Shown in pieces: positions 198-62,180 of a stretch of 64,000 nt of DNA. Every line of letters starts with the position of its first letter. Within the stretch, counting starts at the first letter, position 1. Source of the DNA: Acidimicrobiia bacterium (GTDB lineage Bacteria; Actinomycetota; Acidimicrobiia; Spongiisociales; JAENVV01); NCBI GenBank assembly GCA_041577335.1, contig JBFGJH010000004.1, forward strand, positions 22,549-86,548, written 5' to 3'. The notes under the pieces are model-generated. The model saw only the letters and a program-made list of their open reading frames with translations. It did not search any database and had not been told where the DNA came from. A program made the translations under genes and the position numbers.

Positions 198-3100
198 TCA
201 GCCTGGCACGATCACCGCGTGTGGGTGGGCGTAGACCGTATAGGCCAGCCAGGTCGCATCCCCGGCGTCGGCCGCGGCCTGGCGCGCTGCGATCACCGCG
301 TCGGTCATGCTCTTGCGTTTCAACAACTCTTCGTACAACGTCTCCGTGAAGGTCCGTGCCGGCCGGTCGCCGACCGACCAGAGCGACGACACGAACGCGC
401 CCGCCCCTCGATTGATGAATGCCGCTGCGAAGCCACCGATACCGGTGAGCTGATAGCCGGCTCTGCCAACCTGGCAAGCGTTCAAGACAACCAGCGGCCG
501 GTTGCCGTCGTCGCCGGTCAAGCTGGCGAACTCCGAAACCGTCGTAGCGTTGAGGTACTCAGGGATATAGCTGCCACTTTCAACCCGCCCCTGCATCATC
601 AAGCGCGCGTTGGTGACGTCCGATTGCTCGGCCGTACCGTGACCGGCAAAGTGCAACAGGTCGAAAGATCCGGGTTGCGAGAGCAGTTTGCGGACCTCGC
701 GAACCGTTGGCTCTACCGCCTGCGCACCGAACTGCTGCTGCATGTACCCGAGTTCGGCCTCGGCCTCGGGTAGCCGGAAGTTCGTGCCCTCCGGGTAGGA
801 CGGCACCACAGCCCGAACATGTTCGGGTCGAACACGTATCGCGTCGGGCGGCCAACTTCCATGAAGCCAGCGCACCAACCCCTTGGCTCCCAAGAAATGC
901 TCTTCGGCCCCGAGTGACCCACCCGGTTCCTTCAGATGAACGATCTCCCATGGGATGAAGGGCTCAGTGGACAGAACCTGAATGGCCTTGATCTGATCTC
1001 GGTGCTCCCACAGAGCAGCCCGGATCTCAGGAGGTACCAGCTCTTCGAACAGGGACGAGCCATACGCTCGGATGTCTTGCCGGAAATTGTCGGCATCTTG
1101 TCCGCTGCCGGTCCAGCGATCTTCGATCTCCTTGAAGAGGCGCTCCACATAGGTTTCCCGATCGACCTTCAGCGGCTGCGAGTCGGCGCGAATCAGGAGG
1201 CCTAGTTCTTCTGACTCGAAGTCGAACTCATAGACGACCTGTCCGTCGCTGTAGCGCTCGTTGATCCGCAGCTGGTGTAGTGGTGTCACAAGCGGCGCCG
1301 CCGGCGTCGCCACGCCCTCGCCTCGGATGGTGCCCGACTCGCTGACGGCCGTCTCCACAACGGTTGGCTCGAGCGCCAGGGTGAGGATCGGCACAACGCC
1401 CTGCCGAACCACAATGTCGACCTGTCCTGGTCCCACATCGGTGGCGCGAACGTCGAAGTAGAACTCCAATGAGCCCTCACCTGGTGGGAGCGTTTCCACC
1501 CGGCTTGGTCCCGCCGACTCGAAACCGCGCCGGCACATGACCTGCAAAACGAGTGGCGCCCCCAGCTCAACCTCGCCACTCCCGGACACGGTGACATCGC
1601 CGGCGATCTGGTCGGTGCCCACCCGCACCTCGATCGAGGTGACCTCGCCGAGAACGACCGAATCGTCCATCCCGGCTGCAAACGCCATCTCGGTGGTTTC
1701 GGCCGGGGCATCGGCCGGCGGTTCCACCACAATGGGAGCCGCTACCGCACCTCCGCCTCGGCGAGGCGAACTCGGGGGTGCGTTGACCGCCGCGGGCGGC
1801 GCGGCCGCCATTTCGGCGAACAATCCCCACCAGCGGCGCAACGCTTCGGCCGTGTTTGCCTGCTGGAAGTAGTTGGTGTGGAAAACCGTGCCGTTCGTAC
1901 CGAACTCGAACCTGTCCTTCAGGTATCCGGCCTCCATGCCGGTCATCGAGGACGTGTTGACCACGAGATCGTTGGACTCCCGCATCAGCCTGTCCATGAG
2001 CCCATCTTTCAATATGAACTTCATGCGCGAGGGCAGGCTGTCAGTTGACTCGTCGGCATCGAAGTTCGACGTGACGGCGAAGTAGTCGATGTCGGTTGGC
2101 AGAGGCTGATCAGGGTTTTCCGCATTGAGGTCGACCACGAAGGGGCCGTCTGGAAGCATCGCCGCCAGCCCAGGGATCGTGTCTTCGTCGATCAGCTCGG
2201 TCGCCAGGGCCTTCACAGCGGCCCCGATCAGCTTCAGGCCGCCGGCAATGAGCGCCGCAGGAGCGGCTGCTCCGGGAATCACGGCCCCCGCGCCGGTCGC
2301 ACCGGCGACGATGAGGTTGGTGTAGAGGTCGACCAGGCGGTGCCAATGCTCAGGGCTGGCGAGGAGGGTGCCTCGGTGCGTGGAACCCACGAACACAGCC
2401 CGCTCGACGGTGGCCGTCCAGCCTGACGTCGGGATGACCTTCTCGATCACGCTGCGCAGAACCAGACCACCCCGGCTATACCCGAGTGCATCGATGGTGA
2501 TGTCTTCGGCGCCGGGAATCGAACGAAGCACCGCCACGATGTCTCTGGCGTTCTCCAGCGGATCGACGCTGAGCGTTCGATGGTCGACACCAATCACCAG
2601 GTCGTAGCGATCATGCGCACCGGCCAAGAGGTCGCGGCCTTCCGGCGTGACCCACAGCGGCCCGAAGCTGTTGGACGTCGACGAGAAGGTGCCGTGCACA
2701 AACAGCAGCATCCTTCCGCCAGGAGGCATTGACAGGTCTCCGGGTTCGGCGTGCCGCCACGCAGACGGCCCGTCGGCCGACATCACGACGATGCCCTCCT
2801 CGACATCCTCGAAGTGATTGATGGCGGCCCGTCCCAATGGCGGAGCCACGTACCGGAGGACAAACGCCGTCGCCTTCGCGTAGATCAGATCGCTCACAAA
2901 CCCGCGGGTCGGGTCGATGTCGGGAGCAACCGGACTCAGTTCTATCGAGAATGTCCGTAGCCCACCCGCCGAACGGGTAGCCGCCGGCGCGGCGGAATCT
3001 TGGGGAAGGACCCATGAGTACACGCCATCCTGCTCGACCAGCACCACTGCGTCCTGTCCGGGAGGTGCTTCCAGGGAGATCTCAACCGGCTGGCTTCCGG

Positions 3101-3353
3101 CGAGTGCCGGGGCACTGCGCCGCCTGACACCAGACGGGGGCGTCTGTTCCACGGTTGGCGTCAGCACAACGCGGTCTACCACTTCGAAGTCTGCTCCTGC
3201 CAGAGCGACGCCGAGATCTGGGGCGCCACCTACATCGATCGGCACGGGGCCTGTGGGCAGGTCCACAGAGCCCCGGTCAGCCTCCTGCGTACTGACGCGT
3301 ACAGTCTCGGGCGCATCGATGTGAACCCCTGATGGCAAATCGGCACTCGCCAT
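198..3353 (-). CDS. Large multidomain protein (~1051 aa): N-terminal region, alpha/beta-hydrolase (lipase/esterase-like, GxSxG = GYSRGG) and C-terminal CHAT (caspase-like) protease domain
   Basis: Uninterrupted ORF 198..3434. The internal ATG at 3351-3353 is preceded by AAGGGGAG; an alternative GTG sits at 3434. Hydrolase motifs: LLFVHGTF, ALGYSRGGLV, NDLVVN, VFHTNYF. CHAT motifs near the C-terminus: LLHFAGHG (His) and VVLNACQVG (Cys), then LWSVGD. Codon usage has high GC3. Confidence 0.75.
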   Translation of the reverse strand: MASADLPSGVHIDAPETVRVSTQEADRGSVDLPTGPVPIDVGGAPDLGVALAGADFEVVDRVVLTPTVEQTPPSGVRRRSAPALAGSQPVEISLEAPPGQDAVVLVEQDGVYSWVLPQDSAAPAATRSAGGLRTFSIELSPVAPDIDPTRGFVSDLIYAKATAFVLRYVAPPLGRAAINHFEDVEEGIVVMSADGPSAWRHAEPGDLSMPPGGRMLLFVHGTFSSTSNSFGPLWVTPEGRDLLAGAHDRYDLVIGVDHRTLSVDPLENARDIVAVLRSIPGAEDITIDALGYSRGGLVLRSVIEKVIPTSGWTATVERAVFVGSTHRGTLLASPEHWHRLVDLYTNLIVAGATGAGAVIPGAAAPAALIAGGLKLIGAAVKALATELIDEDTIPGLAAMLPDGPFVVDLNAENPDQPLPTDIDYFAVTSNFDADESTDSLPSRMKFILKDGLMDRLMRESNDLVVNTSSMTGMEAGYLKDRFEFGTNGTVFHTNYFQQANTAEALRRWWGLFAEMAAAPPAAVNAPPSSPRRGGGAVAAPIVVEPPADAPAETTEMAFAAGMDDSVVLGEVTSIEVRVGTDQIAGDVTVSGSGEVELGAPLVLQVMCRRGFESAGPSRVETLPPGEGSLEFYFDVRATDVGPGQVDIVVRQGVVPILTLALEPTVVETAVSESGTIRGEGVATPAAPLVTPLHQLRINERYSDGQVVYEFDFESEELGLLIRADSQPLKVDRETYVERLFKEIEDRWTGSGQDADNFRQDIRAYGSSLFEELVPPEIRAALWEHRDQIKAIQVLSTEPFIPWEIVHLKEPGGSLGAEEHFLGAKGLVRWLHGSWPPDAIRVRPEHVRAVVPSYPEGTNFRLPEAEAELGYMQQQFGAQAVEPTVREVRKLLSQPGSFDLLHFAGHGTAEQSDVTNARLMMQGRVESGSYIPEYLNATTVSEFASLTGDDGNRPLVVLNACQVGRAGYQLTGIGGFAAAFINRGAGAFVSSLWSVGDRPARTFTETLYEELLKRKSMTDAVIAARQAAADAGDATWLAYTVYAHPHAVIVPG

Positions 3354-3502
3354 ATGCTCCCCTTTTCGAGTGGTCTTGAACCTACATGGCCATCCGCGCC
3401 GGCGGAGGGCATTGACCCGGTCCCAACCGCCCACTCAGCGCTGCAGGGACGGTCTGTTCAGGGCTATCGTTTGGTCAGATAGTCGCTGAGGGGAAGCTCA
3501 CC

Positions 3503-25640: not shown

Positions 25641-27161
25641 ATGCGTGGGCTTCTATCGGTTCTTGCTGCGTCGGTGGCGCTGTCTTTCGTAGTTGCTCCG
25701 CCCGTCGCAGCCAACGGCACTTTCACCGACGATGACGGGAGTGTCCACGAGTCGGCCATCGAAGCGATCGCGGCCGAGGGCATCACCACCGGGTGCAATC
25801 CACCCGACTTCGACCATTTCTGCCCTGCCGATCCGGTCACCCGCGGGCAAATGGCCGCCTTCCTGGCACGAGCCTTCGACCTGCCAGACGCCCCCGCCAA
25901 AAACACCTTCACTGACGACGACAACTCCGTGTTCGAAGCCGACATCGAAAAACTCGCTGCCGCCGAAATCACCGCCGGATGCAACCCACCCGATCTCGAC
26001 CAGTACTGCCCCGGCGATCCGGTCACCCGCGGGCAAATGGCCGCCTTCCTGGCACGAGCCTTCGACCTGCCAGACGCCCCCGCCAAAAACACCTTCACCG
26101 ACGACGACAACTCCGTGTTCGAAGCCGACATCGAAAAACTCGCTGCCGCCGAAATCACCGCCGGATGCAACCCACCCGATCTCGACCATTTCTGTCCGTC
26201 CGACTCGATAACTCGGGGCCAAATGGCGACGTTCCTGGCGCGGGGGCTGGGTCTGGCGCTCACCCCGGTCCCTCCTGCTGCGGCCTGCGAGATATTCCCG
26301 TCGGACAACATCTGGAACACCAGAGTGGACACCCTTCCGCTCGACCCGCGATCCAACGTATACATCGCGTCGATGGGCAACGGTCAGCTTCATCCGGATT
26401 TTGGATCTGGATTCTGGCCGCCGCTGTCGGACTCCCCGATCGGCATCCCCTTCGTCGAAGTAGGTGCCGGCCAGGAGCTGGTGGACATCGATTTCACGGC
26501 CTACGGCAGCGAGAGCGACCCGGGTCCCTATCCCGTGCCGACCGACGCCCCCGTCGAAGGTGGACCGGATGGGACCGGTGATCGACATGTGATCGTGCTG
26601 GACACCGACGACTGTGTCCTCTATGAGATGTTCAATGCGTTCCCGCAGACGGGGGGATCATGGTCAGCCGACTCCGGGGCGGTATTCGACCTGTCGTCAC
26701 ACGACCTCCGGCCCGAGGGTTGGACGTCGGCTGATGCGTCCGGCCTACCGATCTTCCCCGGGCTCGTTCGTTACGACGAGGTCGCCAACGGAGCCATCGA
26801 GCACGCTATCCGGTTCACGGCCAACCAAACTCAGGAGGCGTATGTATGGCCGGCCCGCCATTTCGCATCGTCCAACACCGACCCGGACATTCCCCCGATG
26901 GGGCAGCGATTCCGGATGAAGGCCGACTTCGACATCTCCGGCTTCCACCCCGATGTGCAGGTCATACTCACGGCCTTCAAGGAATACGGCCTCATCCTTG
27001 CCGACAACGGATCGTCGTGGTTTGTCACAGGAGCACCCGACGACCGGTGGAACAACGCTGTGCTCGATGAACTCAAGACCGTGCCCGGGAGCGCGTTCGA
27101 AGCCGTGGATGTGAGTGGCCTCATGATCGATCCGGACAGCGGCCAAGCCATCCAGCCCTAG
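25641..27161 (+). CDS. Secreted cell-surface protein with three N-terminal SLH-like repeats and a C-terminal domain of unknown function
   Basis: Signal peptide MRGLLSVLAASVALSFVVAPPVAANG. Three copies of FTDDD.SV(H/F)E..IE..AA.(G/E)IT.GCNPPD.D.(F/Y)CP.DPVTRGQMAAFLARAFDLPDA. The pattern matches the SLH consensus (F.D...H...I..L...GI..G....F.P...VTR...A..L.RA) with Cys replacing Tyr/Arg. Confidence 0.7.
   Translation: MRGLLSVLAASVALSFVVAPPVAANGTFTDDDGSVHESAIEAIAAEGITTGCNPPDFDHFCPADPVTRGQMAAFLARAFDLPDAPAKNTFTDDDNSVFEADIEKLAAAEITAGCNPPDLDQYCPGDPVTRGQMAAFLARAFDLPDAPAKNTFTDDDNSVFEADIEKLAAAEITAGCNPPDLDHFCPSDSITRGQMATFLARGLGLALTPVPPAAACEIFPSDNIWNTRVDTLPLDPRSNVYIASMGNGQLHPDFGSGFWPPLSDSPIGIPFVEVGAGQELVDIDFTAYGSESDPGPYPVPTDAPVEGGPDGTGDRHVIVLDTDDCVLYEMFNAFPQTGGSWSADSGAVFDLSSHDLRPEGWTSADASGLPIFPGLVRYDEVANGAIEHAIRFTANQTQEAYVWPARHFASSNTDPDIPPMGQRFRMKADFDISGFHPDVQVILTAFKEYGLILADNGSSWFVTGAPDDRWNNAVLDELKTVPGSAFEAVDVSGLMIDPDSGQAIQP
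25830..26188 (+). repeat. Near-perfect tandem duplication (two 186-bp units; copies 25830..26002 and 26016..26188 identical except one T/C) inside the SLH-like gene
   Basis: Direct comparison of the sequence lines. The period of 186 bp equals 62 codons, so the duplication is in-frame. Confidence 0.85.
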
Positions 27162-31038: not shown

Positions 31039-31911
31039 ATGCAAGACGACACCAGTACCCGGAAGAGGTCGCTCTGGATTCGCTATGGATTCATCGCGCT
31101 GGCCACGGCTCTCATGTTGGCGCCTGCGGCCGCCTACGCCTCACATACCTTCACCGACGTGCCCGACACCAATATCTTCCATAACGACATCCAATGGATG
31201 GCCGATAACGACATCACGGCGGGTTGCGGAGGCGGAGGCACGCTCTACTGTCCGACGGACAACGTGACCAGGCAACAGATGTCGGCCTTCATGAGGCGGC
31301 TGGCAGAAAACCAGGTAGTTGACGCGGCGACAGCCTTGGAAGCCGATAATGCCACCACGGCGGATGATGCTGACACGCTCGACGGTTTGGACTCGGCAGG
31401 ATTCGTGCAGAAGGGCGAAGCGAACTCGGTCGACTCGTCAATGATCGTCGACGAGCCGTCGGTCGCCCAGCAGGTCGAAGCATCAGGGTTCGCGCTCAGC
31501 GGGCCGACCGAGGACGTCGCCTCGGTGACCATCGAGGCACCCGCGGCCGGGACCGTTATCGTCTGGGGGTCCGCGGAGTTCGTGTTGAGTCACACGACAG
31601 GTACGTCGACATTGGCGATTCCGGCAATCAGCGACACCTCGGCTACAGCTCCAGGCGGTGGGTTCGTTGCCGGAATAGGTGTTCCATCCGGTGCCGCAAC
31701 CGGTTCCTACTTCCAGATATTCTCGAGCCAGCGCGCCTTCCCGGTTGCGGCAGGCTCTCACACGTTCTATCTGGTGGCGAGCGAGTCGTCGGGTAGCGTT
31801 TCGGTGGACGACACGGTTCTGACCGCACTATTCGTCTCCACCACGGGAGGAACAGTAGACACCGCGGGCGCCCCAACTGGTATCGGTGAGGATGCCACCG
31901 ACGGCTCCTAG
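31039..31911 (+). CDS. Secreted protein with one N-terminal SLH-like repeat and a Thr/Gly/Ser-rich beta-rich C-terminal region
   Basis: AAAGGAGG six nt before the ATG at 31039. Signal peptide. FTDVPDTNIFHNDIQWMADNDITAGCGGGGTLYCPTDNVTRQQMSAFMRRLAE is an SLH-like repeat with the same Cys pair. Confidence 0.6.
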   Translation: MQDDTSTRKRSLWIRYGFIALATALMLAPAAAYASHTFTDVPDTNIFHNDIQWMADNDITAGCGGGGTLYCPTDNVTRQQMSAFMRRLAENQVVDAATALEADNATTADDADTLDGLDSAGFVQKGEANSVDSSMIVDEPSVAQQVEASGFALSGPTEDVASVTIEAPAAGTVIVWGSAEFVLSHTTGTSTLAIPAISDTSATAPGGGFVAGIGVPSGAATGSYFQIFSSQRAFPVAAGSHTFYLVASESSGSVSVDDTVLTALFVSTTGGTVDTAGAPTGIGEDATDGS

Positions 31912-49339: not shown

Positions 49340-49992
49340 TGGAGTTGACCCGGCACGGCTCTGTGTTTGTGCTCGCCATGAACTCCGACGACAACCGATT
49401 CAACGTTGAATCGATGAAGGCAATCCACGCAGGACTCGACGAAGTCGAGGCGGCGGCTGTCCCGTCTGCCCTGGTTGTCACCGGTGTCGGCAAGTTCTTC
49501 TCGAATGGTCTCGATCTTGCCGCGGTGGAGACCGGCGAATCCGACCTCATGACGCTGGCGAGAGGGTCGCAGGAGCTGATGGCCAGGACGCTGGTGTTTC
49601 CACGGCCCACCGTTGCCGCCATAAACGGTCATTGCTTCGCGGCAGGTGCCATGTGGTCGTTGTCGTTCGATCACCGCATCATGCGTGTGGACCAAGGCTT
49701 CTGGTCGTTGCCCGAAGTCGACCTCGGCATCCCGTTCACCAAAGGCATGAACGATCTCATCATGGCCCGCCTCACACCGCAAGCAGCGACGGTCGCGATG
49801 ACGACCGGCAACCGATACGGCGGAGACGCCGCAGCCATGGCGGGAATCGTTGACCGGGCCGTGGCTCAGGAGGCGGTGGTTCCGGACGCCATCGAGCTGG
49901 CCGAGGCGCTCTCGGCGAAATCATCCGAAGCGCTGGGGACCATCAAGAGGATGATGCATCAGGGCGTGGTGGAAAGCTTGCGATCGGGATGA
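49336..49992 (+). CDS. Enoyl-CoA hydratase/isomerase (crotonase) family protein, second paralog
   Basis: ATGA overlap with the previous gene. VVTGVGKFFSNGLDL, AAINGHCFAAGAMWSLSFDHRIM. Confidence 0.8.
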   Translation: MMELTRHGSVFVLAMNSDDNRFNVESMKAIHAGLDEVEAAAVPSALVVTGVGKFFSNGLDLAAVETGESDLMTLARGSQELMARTLVFPRPTVAAINGHCFAAGAMWSLSFDHRIMRVDQGFWSLPEVDLGIPFTKGMNDLIMARLTPQAATVAMTTGNRYGGDAAAMAGIVDRAVAQEAVVPDAIELAEALSAKSSEALGTIKRMMHQGVVESLRSG

Positions 49993-50831
49993 TCTTCCTC
50001 GAAGTCGATCGGCTTCCGCCGGATCATGACAACGGCCCACGCCACGAAGGCAGCCGCTACGAGGCCGACCAGCAACGGCCGATCACCGATGAAGCCGGTC
50101 ACCGATGCCGAGGCTTCATCCACCCATCGGACGATACTTGAGCTCCCGAGGCTGGCGGCTCCGGAACTGAGCACGGTCAGCCAGTACCAAACAATGAAGA
50201 CGCCGGCGCCGATCAAGACGAAACCCGAGATCTTGGTGACGTATCGCGAAAGCCATCGCATTTTGGTGATGATCGAGTCCCGCCCAAGCGCAATGGCCAC
50301 GGTGACGGCCATGAGAACGACGGACATGCCCAGCCCGTACGCCAGAAAGGCGGCCAGGCCGGCTCCGAAGGATGCCTGAGTAAACGTGCCGGCTACCAGC
50401 GCCAAAAAGATCGGAAGTGTGCAAGATAAGGACGCCAGCGCATACGAGACGCCGAAGACGATGATCGAGCGAGCGGACGACGTCTTCTGCACGGTCCCCG
50501 AGCCAAGACGAACGTTGAGGTAGCCGCCACGAAGCGTGTAGATACCCAAACCAACCAGGAAGACGCCGACGACGACCGCCACCCAAGGGATGTACACGGC
50601 CGCCGAACGGACGCCGGCAGCCAGGATGGCTCCGGCTATGCCGAACACGGCGATGAATCCCAACGACACCAAGCCGCCCACCCGTAGAGCCGACCGTAAC
50701 GCCCCAGGTCGGCCCTGGGACTCGTCGGAGCCCATGAAGTAGCCGAGGTACGCAGGCAACATCGCAAAGCCGCATGGGTTCACCGTGCTCACCAAACCCG
50801 CCGAGAACGCCGAAGCGAGCAGCGGGATCAT
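49959..50831 (-). CDS. ccdA: Cytochrome c-type biogenesis protein CcdA (DsbD-like thiol-disulfide transporter)
   Basis: STVNPCGFAMLPAYLGYF (NPC motif). Six TM helices. ATGA overlap with the upstream TlpA gene. Confidence 0.8.
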   Translation of the reverse strand: MIPLLASAFSAGLVSTVNPCGFAMLPAYLGYFMGSDESQGRPGALRSALRVGGLVSLGFIAVFGIAGAILAAGVRSAAVYIPWVAVVVGVFLVGLGIYTLRGGYLNVRLGSGTVQKTSSARSIIVFGVSYALASLSCTLPIFLALVAGTFTQASFGAGLAAFLAYGLGMSVVLMAVTVAIALGRDSIITKMRWLSRYVTKISGFVLIGAGVFIVWYWLTVLSSGAASLGSSSIVRWVDEASASVTGFIGDRPLLVGLVAAAFVAWAVVMIRRKPIDFEEDHPDRKLSTTP

Positions 50832-51352
50832 GCGCCGAGCAGGAGCGTTTCGACTCGCTCTGCCAGGTCGGCGGCGAAGAGCGCTCCTGCATGCGTGTCC
50901 ACGATGCGGCCCTGGGCATCGATGAAGACTGTGGTTGGCATCGCCAAGCCGCCGAACTGGGAGTAGACCGCGCCAATGGGATCATCCACGAGCTGGTACG
51001 AAACACCCGTTTCCTCCACGAGTTGCAGAGCGGCGTCTCGCGAGATGTCCTGCATGTCGACGCCGATGAATGTCACGTCGTCTCCCAATGCCTGGTGTAC
51101 CTGCTCGAAGTCGGGCATCTCGGCGGCGCAGGCTGGGCACCACGACGCCCAGAAGTTGAGTACGACCGGCTTTCCCTCGAAGTCAGAAAGGGCGACCGTC
51201 TCGCCCTCAAACGTCTCGAACTCGACGCTCGGTGTTGCGATGAGGCCCTGAGCGCCCTCGCCGTCAGATGAGGCTGACAACGTAACGAATATGGCAGAAG
51301 CGATCGCGCCGACGAGAACGATCGCAAAGATTCTGTTCGTGAAGAGGCTCAT
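50828..51352 (-). CDS. TlpA/ResA family thiol-disulfide oxidoreductase (thioredoxin-like, secreted/anchored)
   Basis: VVLNFWASWCPACAAEMPDF (WCPAC). Confidence 0.85.
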   Translation of the reverse strand: MSLFTNRIFAIVLVGAIASAIFVTLSASSDGEGAQGLIATPSVEFETFEGETVALSDFEGKPVVLNFWASWCPACAAEMPDFEQVHQALGDDVTFIGVDMQDISRDAALQLVEETGVSYQLVDDPIGAVYSQFGGLAMPTTVFIDAQGRIVDTHAGALFAADLAERVETLLLGA

Positions 51353-53272: not shown

Positions 53273-54322
53273 GTGATGCGGGCGCATTGGTCCGAAAAAG
53301 TAGTGGCTTCGCTCGATGAACGAGCGACCGTGATCCAAACCCGCCATGGCGAGGTGCAACTGGCGAGGATCGGCGCGGGCCCGCCCGTGCTCGTGTCTCA
53401 CGGCGGACCGGGAGGGTTCGACCTCGGGCTGGCATGGAGCCAACACCTCCGCCTCGGTGGATGCGAAGTGCTTGCCGTGTCTCGCCCCGGGTACCTTCGG
53501 ACGCCTCTTGCCTCCGGCCGAAGCCCGGCGAGCCAGGCCGACCTCTTTGCGGCTCTTCTCGAAGAGCTTCACATCGAACGGGCAGCCGTATTCGGGTTCT
53601 CATCGGGTGGACCGGCTGCGATTCACTTCGCCGCTCGCTACCCCGATCGCGCGACCGCCCTGTTCCTCGATACGGCGATTCTGGCGCCGTTTGAGCCACC
53701 GATAGGTGCGCTCAGGCGAGCCACCTACGAATCCAGCTTCGCGGTGTGGCTTGCCTATCAGGTGGCGACGCGGAATCCGTCCTTGGCGACGAGACTGATG
53801 GTTGATGGCGTGTCGCAAGGCCTCGACAAGGAGCAGCTAGGCCTAGCGGTCGACTGGATCACTTCCGACCCAGCCCGGATCCAGAGCGTGCAACAACAAT
53901 GGACCTCCATTGCCCCGCAGAGGTACCGCCAGCCAGGATGGACCAACGACAAGGCCAACGAGCGCAGCCTCGAACCACTGCCCTTCGCCGATGTCGCGGC
54001 ACCGACAGTGATCGCCTTTGGCACCAACGACGCCATCGTCCCCGAGGAACACGGGGTCAACGCCGCCAACAAGATCGCAGGTGCTGAGCTGATGTTCGTC
54101 GAAGGAGGCCACCACCTGTTGTCTGTAAGCCGCAATTATGGCCCCGTTGCGCAGCGTCAGCTGGAGCTCCTTCGGGGCGAGCGACGAGCCATAACATCGT
54201 CCTGGCGCACTCCGGCACCATCTCCGGCTGCGCACCCACCACCTACGGGCCCGCAGACCACGTCACCGGAGCCCAGTTGGCCGCCTTCCTCCATCTTGCC
54301 GTCGACTGAGTCTGAAGAGTGA
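53273..54322 (+). CDS. Alpha/beta hydrolase fold protein
   Basis: VLVSHGGPGGF (oxyanion HGG) and FGFSSGGPAA (GxSxG nucleophile elbow). C-terminal Pro/Ser-rich tail. Confidence 0.75.
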   Translation: MMRAHWSEKVVASLDERATVIQTRHGEVQLARIGAGPPVLVSHGGPGGFDLGLAWSQHLRLGGCEVLAVSRPGYLRTPLASGRSPASQADLFAALLEELHIERAAVFGFSSGGPAAIHFAARYPDRATALFLDTAILAPFEPPIGALRRATYESSFAVWLAYQVATRNPSLATRLMVDGVSQGLDKEQLGLAVDWITSDPARIQSVQQQWTSIAPQRYRQPGWTNDKANERSLEPLPFADVAAPTVIAFGTNDAIVPEEHGVNAANKIAGAELMFVEGGHHLLSVSRNYGPVAQRQLELLRGERRAITSSWRTPAPSPAAHPPPTGPQTTSPEPSWPPSSILPSTESEE

Positions 54323-56109: not shown

Positions 56110-56622
56110 ATGCCTGCCCTGACAGGACCATTCACAGTCTCGATCTTGCTGCTCTTGCTCGCCGGCGCGTTCAAGATCTGGCAGCCGACTGCTACGTCCA
56201 ATGCGATGTCTGCGACAGGGCTTCCTGGCAACGACGGCTTCACCCGTCTCCTCGGAGCGGCAGAGATCGCCATCGGATTGGCTGCGCTGCTGGTCGGCGG
56301 CTTGATGCCGGCGCTTCTCATGGGCGGGGCGTACGTCGGGTTCACCGCGTTCGTGGCGGTCGCCCTCCGGCGAGAATTGGCGATCCAGTCGTGCGGGTGT
56401 TTCGGAAAGGCTGACACTCCACCATCGTGGGCACACGTTGCCGTGAACGCGAGTGCCGCCGCGGTAGCACTCATCTTCGGACTCACTGCCACCGAGCCGG
56501 TCGGCGTCTATCTCACCCAAGCCGATGCCGGCACACTGGTGCTCGCCATCCTCGTAGCCACCTACCTCGTCTACGTGCTTCTCGCCGTGTTGCCTGCCGC
56601 CCCGACCGCGAGGCGCGCATGA
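56110..56622 (+). CDS. MauE-like (methylamine utilisation protein MauE / DoxX-related) membrane protein
   Basis: Four TM helices and the diagnostic CGCFG motif (ELAIQSCGCFGKAD). Confidence 0.7.
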   Translation: MPALTGPFTVSILLLLLAGAFKIWQPTATSNAMSATGLPGNDGFTRLLGAAEIAIGLAALLVGGLMPALLMGGAYVGFTAFVAVALRRELAIQSCGCFGKADTPPSWAHVAVNASAAAVALIFGLTATEPVGVYLTQADAGTLVLAILVATYLVYVLLAVLPAAPTARRA

Positions 56623-57997
56623 GCACGTGGCTGGTGGAGCGGTCGAGCCGCTTCCTCGAGAAGCGGGTGAGTCGACGCGGGTTCCTCGAGCGGGTGGCAC
56701 TGGCGGGATCCGCCCTCGTAACGGCGCCGCTGACGTTTGCCCTCAAGCCCATATCGGCTTTCCAAGCCGTGTGCAGCTGTTCCGGACAGTCGTGTACGTG
56801 CAGCTCTTTGTGCTGCGATGGATATACCGAATTCTGCTGCACCATCTACGGAACCAACACGTGCCCGCCGGGCTCGAGAGCAGCCGGATGGTGGAAGGTC
56901 GACGGCTCTGGCTTCTGCGGAGGCAAGAACCGCTACTACCTCGATTGCAACGCCTCGTGCAACGGCTGCGGTTCGGGAGCAGCGGTCTCTGCTCCAACTC
57001 CTGCGCCGACTGCAACTGCGGCTGTGCACAAGGCTCGTGCGGAAACCGCAAAGCATGCTGCACCAGTTTCCGCTACGGGCAATGTGGCAACGACGTCGCC
57101 TGCCTCGGTCCCATCATCTGCCGGGTCGTCACTTGCACCGCTCCCTGGGTGTTCGACGCGACCTGTACCACCACCAGCGCTACGGATAACAACACCCGCT
57201 ACCACGATCGTCCCTGCCTGCACGAGAAGACTGCCTATCCCGAGTTCCCGGCCGTGTTCGTCCCTGACGAGCGCCGCTGGTACCTAGCCGACAGCCTGGA
57301 TAGCCCAACGATCAGCTCCTTCGACTACGGGACCGTCGGAGAAACACCGGTCACTGGTGACTGGGATGGCGACGGCACACGAACCACCGGCGTTGTGAGG
57401 AACAGCCGGTTTGGACGATTCGGCGATGGAACCATGTGGTGGAGGCTCCGGAATAGCGTTGGTGAGGGCGAGCCGAGCATGATCTTCTCATACGGGGAGC
57501 CTGGTGACATTCCCATAACCGGAGATTGGAACGGTGACGGCGAAGACACCATCGGAGTCATTTCAGGCAATGTATGGAAGCTGCGCCTTGCCAACAGCGG
57601 CGGAGACCCTGACATCGAATTCACGTTCGGCGAGCCCGGCGACGTGTTCGTCACCGGCGACTGGAACGGCGACGGCGTCGACACACCTGGGTACATCCGC
57701 GGCAACCGGTTGTTTCTCCGCAACTCGAATTCGTCGGGAAGCGCGGACATCGAGTTTGACTACGGCAGCGGAACGAGCGTCGGCCGCTACGTCATGGGCG
57801 ATTGGAACGGCGACGGCACCGACACACCGGCATTCGTCGACGGCACCACATGGTCGATCCGCAACACGAACGCCGCCGGAATCGCCGACGTGACACTTGC
57901 AATGCCGACCACCGGCGTTCCTCTGGCCTGGAGCCCTGGCTCGGTCTCCGTTGGTCCGACCTTGCCGGCACCCGACGGAAGCGCTCGGCTGGCGTGA
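56619..57997 (+). CDS. Tat-signal, hyper-Cys-rich secreted protein with four C-terminal FG-GAP-like repeats; reading frame shifts by -1 near 56975-56995 (frameshift, sequencing error or pseudogene)
   Basis: ATG 56619 overlaps the MauE stop (ATGA). Tat leader MSTWLVERSSRFLEKRVSRRGFLERVALAGSALVTAPLTFA. Cys-rich segment CSCSGQSCTCSSLCCDGYTEFCCTIYGTNTCPPGS...DCNASCNGCG in frame 0. It continues CSNSCADCNCGCAQGSCGNRKACC...ICRVVTCTAPW in frame -1, where GC3 stays high while frame 0 loses GC3 bias. Four repeats follow, of type F(D/T)YGE.GD.P.TGDWNGDG.DT.G. The stop at 57997 overlaps the next gene's start. Confidence 0.6.
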
Positions 57998-58746
57998 CGG
58001 CGCTGGTCGTGACCCTCATTCTGATCGTCTTCCTGCTTGGCGTGCTCGTGGCCGGTGTTCTTCGCAGCCATGCAGAGATCATGCGCACGCTCCACGACAT
58101 GGGCATGCGCGAAGACGGCACATTCGCCGAGCAGCCCCGCAACGCACCGCTCACGCAGCCGGGTGTCTCCCCTCCCCGAACGTCGGATGCACCCGGCGCC
58201 GACATCACCGGGACGAAACCGGACGGATCGCCCCGCCAAATAAGTGTGGTCGGGACCGATCACACGACGTTGCTGGCTTTTCTCTCCACGGGCTGTTCAA
58301 CCTGCAAGGTGTTCTGGCAAGAATTCGGGAGACGACGCGATCTCCACCTGCCCGGCACCGACACTCGCATGGTCATCGTCACGAAGAGCGCCAATGCCGA
58401 ATCGGCATCCCAACTCGCCTCGCTCGCGCCCGCCCACTGGCCGCTGGTGATGTCGACTGAAGCGTGGGATCACTACGGCGTACCCGTCTCGCCATACTTC
58501 ATCCTCGTTGACGGGCCCAATGGGCAGATTGTTGGTGAAGGAGCCGGCACCAACTGGAAACAGGTTCATTCTTTGCTCGGACAAGCCGTCGCTGACGCAG
58601 GGCTCTTTACGGGTGCCGGACGGAACGCAGGCACCGCTACCGGCGCCGAGCGGGAGGCCCGGGCCGATCAAGAGCTGCGAGCTGCCGGCATAGAGCCGGG
58701 CGATCCCAGCCTCTACACCACCGAAGCACCGGAGTCGGGGCAGTGA
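57994..58746 (+). CDS. MauD/TlpA-like membrane-anchored thioredoxin-fold thiol-disulfide oxidoreductase
   Basis: GTG 57994 overlaps TGA 57995-57997 (GTGA). N-terminal TM VTALVVTLILIVFLLGVLVAGVL. Redox motif LAFLSTGCSTCKVFW (CxxC). Gly/Ala-rich C-terminal tail. Confidence 0.75.
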   Translation: MTALVVTLILIVFLLGVLVAGVLRSHAEIMRTLHDMGMREDGTFAEQPRNAPLTQPGVSPPRTSDAPGADITGTKPDGSPRQISVVGTDHTTLLAFLSTGCSTCKVFWQEFGRRRDLHLPGTDTRMVIVTKSANAESASQLASLAPAHWPLVMSTEAWDHYGVPVSPYFILVDGPNGQIVGEGAGTNWKQVHSLLGQAVADAGLFTGAGRNAGTATGAEREARADQELRAAGIEPGDPSLYTTEAPESGQ

Positions 58747-58823: not shown

Positions 58824-59432
58824 ATGCTTTCGAGCATCACCCCGCTCGGCGAGCGGGGACGGCACAACCGATGGAGCATCACCGCTGCGTGGTACTTGGC
58901 CGGATCAATAGCTGGTGGAATCACCTTCGGGTTGGTGATGGGGGCGCTCGGTGAGGCTTTGGCAACTGTGGCAGAGCCGATGCCGACCGAGGCGGTGAGC
59001 GTGTTTGTGGCGAGCGCGCTGGCTCTGGCCTTGTTGTTCGACACTGGTGTCCTTGGCGAGCGAGTGCCATCGATCCACCGACAGGTGAACGAAGACTGGC
59101 TGGACCTCTATCGCAACTGGGTATACGGCGGGGGCTTTGGATGGCAACTCGGTTTGGGTGTCATCACGATCGTGCCGACGGCCGGCACGTACGTCACGTG
59201 GCTCATGGCCCTTGCGACGGGGCAACTCTGGATGGGGGCTGTCATCGGTGGCGTTTTTGGACTGGCCAGAGGGCTGCCGATTCTGGCGGTCGCCTCTGCC
59301 ACCGATCCACACCGGCTCCGCCGGTTCCACCGAAGGATGGCCTCTGCCGCTCCTGCGGCTCATCGGGCCGTCATTGCGGTCACGGCCGTCGCCCTCGCAG
59401 GATCGTTCGCGGTCATGATCGGCGGCGGGTGA
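58824..59432 (+). CDS. Hypothetical polytopic membrane protein (5-6 TM, no Cys)
   Basis: ATG at 58824. Hydrophobic helices WSITAAWYLAGSIAGGITFGLVMGALG, VSVFVASALALALLF, etc. Confidence 0.5.
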   Translation: MLSSITPLGERGRHNRWSITAAWYLAGSIAGGITFGLVMGALGEALATVAEPMPTEAVSVFVASALALALLFDTGVLGERVPSIHRQVNEDWLDLYRNWVYGGGFGWQLGLGVITIVPTAGTYVTWLMALATGQLWMGAVIGGVFGLARGLPILAVASATDPHRLRRFHRRMASAAPAAHRAVIAVTAVALAGSFAVMIGGG

Positions 59433-59902
59433 TGGCTCAGCTCACCGACCAGGGGATCACCGTGGAGGTTCCGAACGGGTGGGAGGTCGATTTCTACCGA
59501 AGGACGCCCGACGCCATCGCGCTGTCGAACACCAAGCCCGAGAGCACCTACACCGTCGTTCACCTCGCCAACTGGCCGCTTCCTGCCGAGAGGGGCGATT
59601 TCGGCGGCGGGGCAGTGGAATTGATGCGGCGGTCTGATCTCTTGATCATCCTGTTTGAATATGGCCCCGAGCATGTCGGTTCTGCCCTTTTTGCTTCCGA
59701 GGGTGTCCCGTGGCCCCTCGATCCCGATGCATTTGCGGCAAACCAGATGCAGCGTCCGCTCCCCGGCCAGGGTGGCCTTCAACAGTTCTTCACGGTCAGC
59801 CGGCGTCCGTTTTGTCTCTACGTGGTGCTCGGCAGTCTCAGTGATGCCGATTCGCTCGTAGCGGAGGCGAACGAAGTTCTGGCAGGAGTCAGCATCGCAT
59901 GA
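59432..59902 (+). CDS. Hypothetical cytoplasmic protein (156 aa)
   Basis: ATG 59432 overlaps the previous TGA by 1 nt. There is no signal peptide. A degenerate paralogous fragment of its C-terminus lies at ~61990-62060. Confidence 0.5.
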   Translation: MAQLTDQGITVEVPNGWEVDFYRRTPDAIALSNTKPESTYTVVHLANWPLPAERGDFGGGAVELMRRSDLLIILFEYGPEHVGSALFASEGVPWPLDPDAFAANQMQRPLPGQGGLQQFFTVSRRPFCLYVVLGSLSDADSLVAEANEVLAGVSIA

Positions 59903-60897
59903 GGCGCCGCATTGCCTTGATGGTTGCGCTCGTCGCGGCTATGACGATCGCAGCCCCCGCCGGATCAGCGCAGAGCTGGCCGCTCGATGCGTTCATCGAT
60001 GACGACAACAGCGTTCACGAATCGGCAATCGATGTGATCGCCAACCTCGGAATAACGAGCGGCTGCAATCCGCCCGACTTCGACGAATTCTGTCCCGGAG
60101 ACAGCGTCACTCGCGGGCAAATGGCCGCCTTCCTGCGGCGAAGCATCGGTTTGCCGACCAGCAGTACCGACGCCTTCACTGACGACAACTCGTCAGTTTT
60201 CGAAGCAGACATCAACGCCATCGCCGCCGCCGGAATCACGACCGGATGCAACGCGGCAGGTACCGAGTTCTGTCCGGGTGGGACGGTGACGAGAGGTCAG
60301 ATGGCCGCCTTCCTACGGAGAGCAGCCGGAGTGCCGTCGAGCGCAACCGACTTCTTCACCGACGACGACTCGTCCATATTCGAAGCAGACATCAACGCCA
60401 TCGCCGCCGCCGGGATCACGACCGGCTGCGACGCAGCAGACAGCGAATTCTGCCCGAGCGAGGAGGTGACTCGGGCTCAGATGGCCACATTCCTGGTCAG
60501 AGCTTTTGACCTCGTCGCCGGTCCGCCCGAACCCGCCCTCGACTTCGTCCTGGCCTTCACTGGAATCTGCAACGACGACCAGCTGGTCTGCGAAGACGAG
60601 ATCTACTTTCCCGCCGACACTCCGTGGCAATTCGAGGAGGGTTGGTTCTATGTTCTTCCCTTCGAGCCCGGAGACCAGGAAGATTTCGAGTCGGTGGGCA
60701 CGAGCTTCCGTGTGTGGCTCGATGGGGCGTCCATCCCGATGAGTCCCCAGGCCACCGAGACGGTGGGCGGAGAGTCGATTCGCCGGTTCACGGGGACACT
60801 GCCTCGCCTGCAGCCCGGCACTCACTCACTCGTCGGCGAATGGTGGTGGGCAGGAGAACCGCTATATCGAAGCGAGCTCACCGTCTACGTTCCCTAG
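59899..60897 (+). CDS. Secreted cell-surface protein with three SLH-like repeats plus a C-terminal domain (paralog of 25641..27161)
   Basis: ATGA overlap with the previous gene. Signal peptide MRRRIALMVALVAAMTIAAPAGSAQS. Three repeats F(I/T)DD(D/N)(N/S)SV(H/F)E(S/A)(A/D)I..IA..GIT.GC(N/D)....(E/D)FCPG.(S/T)VTRGQMAAFLRR. Confidence 0.7.
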   Translation: MRRRIALMVALVAAMTIAAPAGSAQSWPLDAFIDDDNSVHESAIDVIANLGITSGCNPPDFDEFCPGDSVTRGQMAAFLRRSIGLPTSSTDAFTDDNSSVFEADINAIAAAGITTGCNAAGTEFCPGGTVTRGQMAAFLRRAAGVPSSATDFFTDDDSSIFEADINAIAAAGITTGCDAADSEFCPSEEVTRAQMATFLVRAFDLVAGPPEPALDFVLAFTGICNDDQLVCEDEIYFPADTPWQFEEGWFYVLPFEPGDQEDFESVGTSFRVWLDGASIPMSPQATETVGGESIRRFTGTLPRLQPGTHSLVGEWWWAGEPLYRSELTVYVP

Positions 60898-61156: not shown

Positions 61157-61729
61157 CTACTCGTACAGCGGAATCCAGCTGCTCCCGACGTTGGTGGGAT
61201 CGTCGCCCACGAACACACCCTCGGTGTTCACGAGGACGTCACCCGTGAAGACAATCCTCATGTGGGGGGAGTGCATGTCGGGCACCCTGCACGGAATAAT
61301 GTCTCCGAGGTGCAGTCGGATTGTATCGGGGTTGGGGCACGTGTAGAACTTCGCCAGAGCTGCGTAGCCCCTGGCAGGGTCGATGAGCAATTCGTCATCG
61401 CAGCCACCGTACACACCGTCGTCCCAGCCGGTCTCGAGGTTCCATCCGAACGGGAACCCATCATCATCGATGCTTGCAACCTCGACGCCTTGGAAGAAGA
61501 TCTTGAAGTGGGCTTGGCGACCACCGTCGTTCAATCGCACGATGACCTCATCGTTGCTGACGTTCCGGATGACATTGACGCCCGGCGCCGCAGTATCGCC
61601 AGATACATCGTCGATAGGGGTCATGGCCATCGGCGCCGGCTGGGCAGCCACCGCCGGTAATGCCGCCAACATCGTCAACGCGCTGGTGACGACGACGAGA
61701 GGAACCAGGAATCGGGCCTTGCTGAACAT
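61157..61729 (-). CDS. Hypothetical secreted protein (190 aa, 4 Cys)
   Basis: ATG at 61729 with GGAGGCAA upstream. Signal peptide MFSKARFLVPLVVVTSALTMLAALPAVAAQPAPMA. No recognised domain. Confidence 0.6.
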   Translation of the reverse strand: MFSKARFLVPLVVVTSALTMLAALPAVAAQPAPMAMTPIDDVSGDTAAPGVNVIRNVSNDEVIVRLNDGGRQAHFKIFFQGVEVASIDDDGFPFGWNLETGWDDGVYGGCDDELLIDPARGYAALAKFYTCPNPDTIRLHLGDIIPCRVPDMHSPHMRIVFTGDVLVNTEGVFVGDDPTNVGSSWIPLYE

Positions 61730-61872
61730 GTTGCCTCCGATCGGCTCTTCAGAGCCAGCCATACCCCGGTGAAATCAAACGTAGCACACGCGGCTACGGG
61801 GCGTCCGGCCGATCCGGCGGCTTCCAGCCGCAAAAACTGCACTCAGGATCTGCTCCGCCCCGCAGGACGCCG

Positions 61873-61927
61873 GGCAAGGTCACAAAGGTCGCCAGGCAAG
61901 GTCAAAAAGGTCGCCGGGCAAGCAAGG
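61873..61927. promoter_or_regulatory. Tandem direct repeat: GGCAAGGTCA(C/A)AAAGGTCGCC(A/G) x2 followed by a partial third unit GGCAAGCAAGG, 145-200 bp upstream of the secreted-protein gene start (61729)
   Basis: Seen directly in the sequence. Each unit carries two AGGTC(A/G) half-sites 11 bp apart, one helical turn, which suggests a response-regulator or direct-repeat-binding site. Confidence 0.3.
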
Positions 61928-61989
61928 CCTCAACCCTTTTTGCGGCTCGAGGAGCACCATGGCCACTGCATCCGGCGGACTTCCCAGCC

Positions 61990-62165
61990 AACCTGAGGCG
62001 ACGCCTCTTCGTCGTTCTCGGGAGCCTTGCCTACGTGAATGCGCTGCTCGCCGAGGCGAACGACGTTCTCTTCACAGGCGCCGACAAACCGTGTCCATGA
62101 TTTGGCGATTGATGTGATCGCCAGACTCGACATCACGATCGGGTGCAATCCATGGGACAAAGTCC
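61990..62165 (+). pseudogene. Degenerate remnant of a paralogous copy of the hypothetical/SLH gene pair (59432..60897): ...FVVLGSLAYVNALLAEANDVLFTGADKPCP* then, out of frame, an SLH-like fragment HDLAIDVIARLDITIGCNPWDKV
   Basis: Nucleotide and protein similarity to 59840..59902 (LYVVLGSLSDADSLVAEANEVLAGVSIA) and to 60015..60080 (VHESAIDVIANLGITSGCNPPDF). The region has no intact ORF or start. Confidence 0.4.
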
Positions 62166-62180
62166 CCGAGTGGCGCACCG

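Follow-up and report, generated by a model that had tools for sequence, protein, structure and literature searches.

Three genes in the window (the whole stretch of DNA analysed, 64 kb in length) encode small proteins that begin like exported ones and continue with one to three short repeats, each carrying two cysteines, and the first of these genes contains two nearly identical stretches of DNA. What the repeats are, what the cysteines could be doing and whether the array has grown recently are the questions raised by this locus. Our data indicate, as the likely explanation, that the three proteins of this uncultured Acidimicrobiia bacterium (Actinomycetota) are S-layer homology (SLH) wall anchors in which every repeat would be closed by its own disulfide, and that the near-identical stretches are gene-converted tracts inside an ancestral array of three repeats. 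The SLH wall anchor itself is known; what appears to be new, as far as the sequences can tell, is the lineage-specific form with a Cys pair. The three genes and their parts are as follows.

25641..27161, forward strand: gene 1, an ORF of 506 aa, product predicted to be secreted; SLH trimer and C-terminal domain
25641..25715, forward strand: signal-peptide-like N-terminus of gene 1, aa 1-25, ending in VAA before NG (read off the sequence)
25716..26255, forward strand: three SLH repeats of gene 1, aa 26-205, with one Cys pair apiece
26277..27158, forward strand: C-terminal domain of gene 1, aa 213-506, with the invariant Cys pair C216/C325
31039..31911, forward strand: gene 2, predicted secreted protein with one Cys-pair SLH repeat (about 31150..31305) and an Ala/Thr/Ser/Gly-rich C-terminal part
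59899..60897, forward strand: gene 3, product predicted to be secreted; SLH trimer at 59989..60510, C-terminal domain of ~125 aa

When read by eye, all three proteins display a charged n-region, a hydrophobic h-region and an Ala-x-Ala-like site, and they are predicted to be Sec-exported. The ORF translation of gene 1 starts with MRGLLSVLAASVALSFVVAPPVAANG, which is signal-peptide-like, and pLDDT is <50 at residues 1-24 (AF2). Three copies of a repeat of ~62 aa are followed by the C-terminal domain of ~290 aa. An HMM built from these repeats finds three of them in 25641..27161, three in 59899..60897 (84-87 bits per repeat) and one in 31039..31911 (47.2 bits, E 7.5e-14), and besides the three genes it picks up two decayed repeat fragments. 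This bears out the proposal of the earlier note that three genes combine a signal peptide with one to three repeats. The assignment to SLH, also proposed there, holds directly for genes 1 and 3, which score 38.4 and 35 bits with the Pfam SLH model PF00395 (cut-off 20.8 bits; PROSITE counterpart PS51272), gene 3 matching in three stretches, but not for gene 2, which taken alone stays below the cut-off with 16.3 bits. Despite this Pfam score the repeat of gene 2 clearly belongs to the Cys-repeat family, judging from its HMM match. Pfam gives an SLH match at E<=1e-5 in 82 of 93 family representatives, and an ortholog profile matches SbsB and Sap with E~1e-10. The fold predicted for the three tandem repeats is the pseudo-threefold spindle of three-helix bundles. 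The SLH trimers of genes 1 and 3 are homologous to SLH domains and have the predicted fold of this family.

The product of gene 1 is identical to NCBI protein P0393 (106-kb contig). It has at least 8000 homologs among the matches listed, and full-length orthologs with 62-69% identity bear Acidimicrobiia MAG names; for some orthologs "S-layer homology domain-containing protein" is the existing NCBI name. SLH in a high-GC Gram-positive organism had been considered notable in itself. That view of SLH as unusual in Actinobacteria is rejected on these names and on published Pfam counts, as SLH matches are already broadly spread in the phylum, with 33 species tallied in 2018 (PMC6081394, PMC6030368). 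The literature search found no paper combining Acidimicrobiia with S-layer homology, and for SLH domains, disulfide and Actinobacteria together it yielded general reviews only, as far as the available parts of those texts go.

The residues by which SLH domains contact their ligand have been defined as Gly29 of GIIxG, Arg43 of TRAE and Trp13, which stacks on the sugar and is conserved in the SLH profile (PMC6081394). Among 294 repeats from 101 ORFs of other genomes, the equivalent of Gly29 is Gly in 293 and that of Arg43 is Arg in 292. In 115 gene 1 orthologs the Arg43 equivalent is invariant in repeats 1-3, and the Gly29 equivalent shows no variation in repeats 2 and 3 and is conserved to at least 90% in repeat 1. 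At the position of Trp13 the same 294 repeats do not have the stacking Trp; an aromatic or imidazole side chain is retained (Phe in 218, His in 67 and Tyr in 5, together 290 of 294). Since the canonical Trp is replaced by Phe or His, ligand specificity may differ here. The SLH trimers of genes 1 and 3 would form the usual "three-pronged spindle", in which the GITxG loop and TRGQ motif, the equivalents of GIIxG and TRAE, line the grooves. The most likely ligand of these grooves is a secondary cell-wall polymer that is anionic and probably pyruvylated and would be bound non-covalently.

We know of no wall polymer that has been studied in this actinobacterial host class. Alternatively, the SLH fold could serve a different ligand, such as another anionic wall glycopolymer or a modified peptidoglycan, as in the cadaverine-dependent binding of OmpM in Negativicutes. 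The exchange of the stacking Trp for Phe or His speaks for such a ligand, and so does the result of the csaB search proposed in the earlier note: no csaB-type gene lies within the 64-kb window, no pyruvyl transferase was detected in the window with E. coli WcaK, the enzyme of genome L025 and a 121-sequence profile as queries, and none was detected in the relative L001. Moreover, Actinobacteria produce varied anionic wall polymers (PMC6801904), SLH ligand switching is known (bioRxiv 10.1101/2021.05.31.446380), and a pyruvyl transferase adjoins only 2 of 80 related loci. On the other hand, the pyruvate-contacting Arg and Gly are nearly invariant, and in two genomes a PF04230 gene does lie directly upstream of Cys-SLH genes. 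It is a gene in which GT2 is fused to PS_pyruv_trans (PF04230, 60.8 bits); in L025 it immediately precedes two Cys-SLH genes, and in L011 it again lies directly upstream of Cys-SLH genes. This fusion is WcaK-like and is not a demonstrated CsaB ortholog; ~50 of its close homologs carry Acidimicrobiia or Actinomycetota MAG names, and about 250 detectable homologs of this type of pyruvyl transferase stand against thousands of Cys-SLH proteins. A different ligand is thus worth keeping in mind but on the whole unlikely, and a pyruvylated wall polymer is the preferred candidate.

Every repeat has the pattern G-C-x(5-8)-C-P followed by TR(G/A/Q)Q, and in gene 1 the pairs are C52/C61, C114/C123 and C176/C185. 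The Cys pair had been called invariant on the basis of this DNA alone, and it is indeed present in all three repeats of all 115 gene 1 orthologs. Each ortholog inspected (15/15) has 8 Cys, and all 8 positions of gene 1 are invariant in the 115-ortholog alignment. Both Cys are found in 291 of the 294 repeats from other genomes, the exceptions being two repeats cut by a contig end and one minus both Cys. They are likewise found in 495 of 505 repeats of 148 cluster representatives, where eight register-shifted pairs, one garbled repeat and one repeat minus both Cys make up the remainder. Across the family the loop between them is 5-10 residues long and the Cys positions are fixed. The first Cys, right after the ligand-binding glycine (SLH position 30), and the second, just before the conserved proline, seem to be a lineage-specific feature, and the most likely arrangement is a disulfide between the two, within the repeat, by which the loop lining the groove would be stapled. 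One such disulfide per repeat is probable; the conservation of the Cys and the pattern of their loss agree with an intradomain bond as suggested earlier. The proposed disulfide is also in keeping with the way in which Actinobacteria generally employ such bonds in their exported proteins, whose Cys counts are biased to even numbers, while Firmicutes exclude Cys (PMC2823432).

The Cys pairs could instead be ligands of a metal or cofactor or act as reactive thiols, and six Cys per trimer are compatible in principle with metal sites. The spacing of the two Cys is variable, and the repeat offers no conserved His, Asp or further Cys as a partner. In each of the two observed losses a single repeat was without both its Cys and the remaining repeats were unaffected, and gene 2, a single-repeat protein, retains one pair only. 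These are exported proteins, and their phylum makes use of disulfides (PMC2823432). All this makes metal binding or thiol chemistry quite improbable, and a disulfide within each repeat is the reading preferred here.

The near-identical stretches of gene 1 had been described as two 186-bp units one base apart. Tandem Repeats Finder gives a period of 186, 2.2 copies and 94% matches over 25782..26194. The segments 25830..26002 and 26016..26188, 173 nt each, differ by one base, the sole difference being T at 25913 and C at 26099, a synonymous change at a third position. At its maximal extent the tract measures 174 nt with this one mismatch.

25829..26002, forward strand: conversion tract copy A, covering helix 2 of repeat 1, the linker, and helix 1 with the Cys1 loop of repeat 2
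26015..26188, forward strand: conversion tract copy B, covering helix 2 of repeat 2, the linker, and helix 1 with the Cys1 loop of repeat 3

The single difference was therefore described correctly, but whole units were not, since the near-identical part covers 174 nt within the 186-nt period. The explanation offered at first was a very recent in-frame tandem duplication that added a 186-bp unit to a freshly expanded array, and in its favour is the 174-nt tract, which recurs 186 nt further on with a single mismatch. Against it, the repeat number is exactly three in 115 of 115 gene 1 orthologs, which are 60-94% identical and similar in length, and the tract runs from mid-repeat to mid-repeat and does not cover a whole unit. 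In addition, L001, with 88.9% DNA identity to gene 1 in the window, carries the same near-identical tract. The copies are 1 nt apart within each genome and 10 nt apart between the window and L001, and at 9 of these 10 positions the difference is mirrored in the other copy. Substitutions that are specific to a lineage yet shared by its two copies mean that homogenisation took place after the two lineages had split. Similar tracts (at least 100 nt, at most 1 mismatch, offset 183 or 186 nt) exist in ~10% of Cys-SLH genes of other genomes, also in three-repeat proteins. A fresh duplication, to which we give hardly any credence, is ruled out by the ancestral three-repeat count together with the mirrored substitutions in L001.

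An assembly collapse or expansion had also been feared, as a tandem repeat of this kind can be mis-resolved: the tract exceeds typical k-mers and comes near short-read length, and the window is from a metagenome-type contig. Yet the same in-frame three-repeat structure is found in two assemblies, the window and ENA ERZ25039499 contig_22213, each of which retains its own distinguishing mismatch and its own lineage-specific bases, and the copy number agrees with all 115 orthologs. An artefact of either the near-identity or the copy number is extremely improbable and is rejected, as the relative L001 has the same structure. The 174-nt tracts are the product of gene conversion within an ancestral three-repeat array, a case of concerted evolution. 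Recurrent intragenic conversion between neighbouring repeats would keep the tracts alike with no gain in copy number. For genome scanning it follows that near-identical tandem tracts in SLH arrays reflect concerted evolution and not new duplications.

Gene 3 stands in a neighbourhood the gene order of which is conserved in four other genomes, and which includes the following features.

57802..58746, forward strand: membrane-anchored CxxC protein (STGCSTC), head of the conserved gene 3 cluster
58824..59432, forward strand: DsbD_2-family membrane protein (PF13386, 29.4 bits, cut-off 24.9)
59432..59902, forward strand: 156-aa ORF with no family match, in a 4-nt overlap (ATGA) with the start of gene 3
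62087..62155, forward strand: decayed Cys-SLH repeat relic (NRVHDLAIDVIARLDITIGCNPW), repeat HMM E 9e-5

The CxxC protein is conserved upstream of gene 3 orthologs in L008, L009 and L055, and the DsbD_2 gene in these three and L020; the 156-aa ORF and the C-terminal domain of gene 3 are conserved in L008, L009, L020, L055 and L081. The stop of the DsbD_2 gene overlaps the start of the following ORF (TGATG), and the two are translationally coupled. The CxxC protein has no Pfam match, so that Pfam does not confirm the suspected thioredoxin fold, and in NCBIfam it gives a faint match to TIGR02661 (MauD) with E 0.022, far under the cut-off; it is possibly thioredoxin/MauD-like. The relic is 54% identical to residues 37-73 of gene 3 (tblastn) and is preceded by a decayed paralog of the 156-aa ORF (61726..62097, E 6e-7). 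A connection of the repeats with nearby thiol-disulfide genes, as had been supposed, is thus seen for gene 3, which is coupled to a DsbD_2-family gene in a conserved order, but not for gene 1: the CcdA and TlpA-like thioredoxin genes at 49959..51352 have no visible link to it. It could be imagined that the Cys pair beside the ligand glycine works as a redox switch, the loop disulfide being made or reduced by a relay of the CxxC protein, the DsbD_2 protein and the small ORF linked to gene 3, and that wall-polymer binding would be turned on and off in this way. If true, a dedicated extracytoplasmic relay would control attachment and release of Acidimicrobiia surface proteins, but we consider such a switch very doubtful.

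Acidimicrobiia are abundant in soil, water and sludge and have barely been cultured, and to our knowledge their envelope biology is essentially unstudied. The Cys-SLH module occurs in 5,589 50%-identity clusters at E<=1e-30, and the loci confirmed in species-representative genomes number at least 546; the 80 best of those loci all come from MAGs of Acidimicrobiia or Actinomycetota, and a genome has several paralogs. The module is N-terminal or C-terminal, and its passengers include VanY and M15 peptidases, subtilase, trypsin, beta-helix, GSDH and SpoIID domains. Divergent repeat variants with GTECGEGLFCP were also met with, for which cluster look-ups yielded almost no further taxonomy. By its predicted properties, the Cys-SLH module would serve uncultured Acidimicrobiia as a general wall anchor. 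The data suggest SLH surface display on a large scale in this class, of peptidases, wall-active enzymes and redox proteins, in a lineage-wide form that appears to staple each repeat by a disulfide beside the sugar-binding glycine. This offers a testable case of a wall anchor first studied in Cys-poor Firmicutes and adapted in a phylum with oxidative folding. Two uncharacterised items come to attention, the GT2-pyruvyl-transferase fusion beside Cys-SLH genes and the C-terminal domain of gene 1. The latter has no family model and represents a widely distributed family with ~60% identity across bacterial phyla and one archaeal MAG. Its invariant acidic residues are D253, E291, D293, D314, E329, D365 and D455.

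When compared with known systems, this C-terminal domain has a weak resemblance to the double-psi beta-barrel of wall-active proteins such as MltA lytic transglycosylases, expansins, GH45 and cerato-platanins, and it could be a wall enzyme that binds or cleaves glycans. Gene 2 is similar to single-SLH proteins of the OmpM/SlpA type in having one SLH repeat after the signal peptide. Those proteins build the SLH trimer by homotrimerisation, and gene 2 with its single repeat would need to oligomerise for such a module, but gene 2 showed neither a porin nor a clear coiled coil, and Actinobacteria, hence Acidimicrobiia, are treated as monoderm (bioRxiv 10.1101/2021.05.31.446380). Its syntenic ortholog, L001:15367-16218, is 51% identical overall and nearly identical in the N-terminal 110 aa, while the C-terminal part is fast-evolving. 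The best match over all three repeats of gene 1 is SbsB of Geobacillus stearothermophilus (PDB 4AQ1), with E 8e-8 for the single sequence and E 1.2e-10 with a profile. SbsB is a true S-layer lattice protein without the Cys pair, whereas gene 1 carries a small domain of enzyme-like character and nothing in it points to lattice formation. Genes 1-3 are all small (290-506 aa), with enzyme-like or other domains, and from their predicted make-up they should not be termed S-layer proteins. The reference SLH trimers are those of Bacillus anthracis Sap (PDB 3PYW, 6BT4) and Paenibacillus alvei SpaA (6CWC and related entries). Compared to these, the repeats of Acidimicrobiia, with their putative wall binding, have Phe or His in place of SLH-Trp13, a loop ~3 residues longer (NPPxND), and an invariant Cys at SLH-30 together with a second Cys before the conserved Pro.

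The repeats of gene 1 belong to the SLH family, in a variant that is found lineage-wide. The features of the window to which the text refers are as follows.

25641..27161, + strand: gene 1, a 506-aa ORF
31039..31911, + strand: gene 2
59899..60897, + strand: gene 3
58824..59432, + strand: DsbD_2-family gene, with a 1-nt overlap (TGATG) with the next ORF
56110..56622, + strand: MauE-family gene
198..3434, - strand: 1078-aa protein with DUF7362, DUF7379, DUF7363 and a C-terminal CHAT (caspase-like) domain, unrelated to the SLH genes

In the gene 1 product, three ~62-aa repeats (R1 to R3) lie between a signal-peptide-like N-terminus and a C-terminal domain of ~290 aa. Tandem Repeats Finder placed the array at 25782..26194 (period 186 nt, 2.2 copies, 94% matches). 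A repeat-built HMM found three repeats in gene 1, one in gene 2 and three in gene 3, as the earlier note had claimed for three genes with one to three repeats of ~60 aa, plus two decayed fragments in the window. Against Pfam SLH (PF00395, cut-off 20.8 bits) the proposed family held for gene 1 (38.4 bits) and gene 3 (35 bits); the lone repeat of gene 2 fell below the cut-off (16.3 bits) but scored 47 bits against the Cys-repeat HMM. An NCBI protein from a 106-kb contig matches the gene 1 product exactly. Gene 1 is flanked by genes for an uncharacterised secreted protein and an amino-acid dehydrogenase. With ~63% GC and mixed metabolic genes, the window is ordinary chromosomal DNA.

Two stretches of gene 1, 25829..26002 and 26015..26188 (copies A and B, maximal length 174 nt), each reach from helix 2 of a repeat into the Cys1 loop of the following repeat. 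It was confirmed that they are identical except for one base, 25913 T and 26099 C, a synonymous third-position difference. It had been suggested that this reflects a fresh tandem duplication or an assembly problem. Repeat number is three in all 115 aligned orthologs of gene 1, therefore the copy number is ancestral. The gene in L001, the syntenic relative of the window (ENA ERZ25039499 contig_22213), shows 88.9% DNA identity to gene 1, with 169 differences. Copies A and B are 1 nt apart inside the window genome and 1 nt apart inside L001, and the two genomes differ by 10 nt per copy, nine of the ten positions having changed alike in both copies. These shared changes are mostly at third-codon positions, thus protein-level selection cannot account for the tract identity. 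A new 186-bp duplication is rejected by the ancestral three-repeat count and the concerted changes; the tract identity results from concerted evolution, in which gene conversion acted after the split of the window and L001 lineages. An assembly artefact, which the near-identity had brought to mind, is unlikely because two separate assemblies agree on the in-frame structure and each retains its own distinguishing base.

Homogenisation of repeats is a recurrent property of the Cys-SLH family, that is, of SLH modules bearing the Cys pair. Mean R2-R3 protein identity among orthologs is 0.63, and a few lineages (the window and the database proteins P0001, P0036 and P0066) reach values of 0.83-0.94. 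Of 86 three-repeat genes from other genomes, ~10% contain tracts of at least 100 nt that recur 183 or 186 nt away with no more than 1 mismatch, the longest being 323 nt. Those of 203-323 nt are in the following loci.

L052:1888-3540
L062:255-2879
L043:1513-3543
L080:1660-3516
L036:1738-3546

Cys1 comes immediately after SLH-Gly29 and Cys2 just before a conserved Pro. The six SLH Cys are invariant across the 115 gene 1 orthologs, as is the pair C216/C325 of the C-terminal domain; eight Cys are therefore always present, and the invariance first noticed in the window extends to all repeats of these orthologs. Both Cys were present in 291 of 294 repeats from other genomes (101 Cys-SLH ORFs, 80 loci), the exceptions being two repeats truncated by a contig end and one without either Cys (GNNPP...FGP). 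Representatives of 50%-identity clusters (n = 148) had both in 495/505 repeats. The remaining 10 were eight register-shifted pairs (GTECGEGLFCP), one garbled repeat and one that had lost both Cys (GSADGRYHP), a loop that resembles the canonical SLH loop. Loss of one Cys alone was not seen among the intact repeats of the two surveys (294 + 505 repeats). The Cys1-Cys2 loop is an indel hot spot of 5 to 10 residues, with the Cys positions fixed. Since pair loss in one repeat leaves the pairs of that protein's other repeats in place, and a single-repeat protein has exactly one pair, the Cys partners lie within one repeat. Exported actinobacterial proteins have even-biased Cys counts, indicative of disulfides, and Firmicutes exclude Cys (PMC2823432). 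The proteins studied here are exported too, and both points fit an intra-repeat disulfide, which, judging from sequence, would probably staple the groove-lining loop. Each repeat of the lineage-wide variant has thus probably gained a disulfide. The shifted subtype (GTECGEGLFCP), which is divergent and has its first Cys displaced, was observed in very large fn3-containing proteins.

The proposed link to nearby thiol-disulfide proteins is supported for gene 3 only. For CcdA and a TlpA-like thioredoxin (49959..51352), proteins typical of the reducing pathway, no link to gene 1 was seen. After the DsbD_2 gene comes a 156-aa ORF whose end shares 4 nt (ATGA) with the start of gene 3. The gene order (CxxC membrane protein, then DsbD_2, then the small ORF, then a Cys-SLH protein of gene-3 type) is conserved in four loci of other genomes (L008, L009, L055 and L020, the CxxC gene not being detected in the L020 version) and kept in part in L081. 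The CxxC membrane protein gave only a faint MauD-like match.

Other observations concern the same region and gene 2. The gap between 61157..61762(-) and 62181..62861(-) holds, at 61726..62190(+), a decayed copy of the segment in which the 156-aa ORF meets the first Cys-SLH repeat of a gene-3-like gene; its second Cys is gone, it has stop codons within, and it is probably what remains of a duplicated module. An SLH-like fragment, LAHSGTISGCAP-TTYGPADHVTGAQLAAFLHLAV (~54202..54303(+), HMM E 1.5e-5), lacks the second Cys and the Arg. It does not share the reading frame of the 3' end of the alpha/beta-hydrolase ORF 53273..54322 and might represent a relic or a fusion with a frameshift. After the MauE-family gene, a Tat-signal, very Cys-rich protein starts near 56619 (MSTWLVER...RRGFLERV...CCDGYTEFCCTIYG) and seemingly carries on in another frame as ORF 56627..57997, ending in FG-GAP-like repeats; a frameshift, a misassembly or a gene overlap might explain this change of frame within 56110..57997. 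Gene 2 and its syntenic ortholog L001:15367-16218 are nearly identical over the N-terminal 110 aa, which hold the signal peptide, the SLH repeat and the ADDADTLDGLDS motif; the C-terminal ~170 aa are strongly diverged, which makes them a fast-evolving surface-exposed part.

Three SLH residues bind 4,6-pyruvyl-ManNAc, as defined by Blackler et al. (PMC6081394). Among the 294 repeats of other genomes, Gly occupies the SLH-Gly29 position in 293 and Arg the SLH-Arg43 position in 292; in place of SLH-Trp13 there is Phe (218), His (67) or Tyr (5). A search for csaB found no pyruvyl transferase gene in the 64-kb window or in L001. E. coli WcaK, used as query against loci of other genomes, matched an ORF of L025 that immediately precedes two Cys-SLH genes; Pfam identifies it as a fusion of a GT2 glycosyltransferase with PS_pyruv_trans (PF04230, 60.8 bits, cut-off 25.3). 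Such fusions were located in two Acidimicrobiia/Actinomycetota MAGs.

L025:113-2791: GT2 + PF04230 fusion, directly upstream of the Cys-SLH gene pair (SLH+GSDH and M15 peptidase+SLH)
L011:224-2821: GT2 + PF04230 fusion, likewise directly upstream of a Cys-SLH gene pair

Only about 250 homologs of the fusion were detected in total; the names of ~50 close ones point to MAGs of Acidimicrobiia or Actinomycetota. 'A few examples within Actinobacteria' of SLH/CsaB co-occurrence have been described (bioRxiv 10.1101/2021.05.31.446380), and pyruvylated wall polymers are known from several actinobacterial genera (PMC6801904). Together with the PF04230 gene beside Cys-SLH genes, these reports make a pyruvylated polymer the most likely, though for this genome putative, ligand.

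Homologs of gene 1 number at least 8000. Full-length orthologs (~500 aa, 62-69% identity) are, where named, from Acidimicrobiia MAGs, some annotated 'S-layer homology domain-containing protein'. An SLH-trimer-only profile matched 5,589 cluster representatives at E<=1e-30, 34,140 at 1e-10 and 97,503 at 1e-3, the last figure presumably also including canonical SLH domains. When each species was represented by a single genome, a scan confirmed at least 546 Cys-SLH loci; the best 80 all come from MAGs of uncultured Acidimicrobiia or Actinomycetota, and one genome contributes up to five of these 80. In these 80 the module is borne by 101 ORFs, 93 of them with three repeats, at the N- or C-terminus, and such genes are frequently neighbours. 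Some representatives, including P0121-P0125 and P0234, have two or three trimers per chain (6 or 9 repeats). Uncultured Acidimicrobiia make large-scale use of the Cys-SLH variant. Its passengers include VanY, M15 peptidases, beta-helix, subtilase, trypsin, glucose/sorbosone dehydrogenase, cupredoxin, SpoIID, GDSL lipase and PGA_cap. Homologs of the gene 1 C-terminal domain are mostly stand-alone proteins (290-350 aa, ~58-68% identity) from Acidobacteriia, Anaerolineae, Meiothermus, Hyphomicrobiales, Actinobacteria and one Methanomicrobiales MAG; those named are all 'hypothetical', and one protein has three tandem copies. A reasonable but tentative guess is that gene 1 encodes a putative wall-anchored glycan-active enzyme.

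The pyruvyl-transferase fusion, the DsbD_2 operon and the uncharacterised C-domain family are three testable side leads. The SLH family itself is already known, and no description of its Cys-pair variant was found in the searchable literature. The three-repeat region of gene 1 aligns end to end with the SLH trimers of SbsB (4aq1, E 8e-8) and Sap, and a profile from the 115 orthologs matched each at E~1e-10. SLH trimers usually serve as a general wall-display anchor, and the Cys-SLH architectures match this role.
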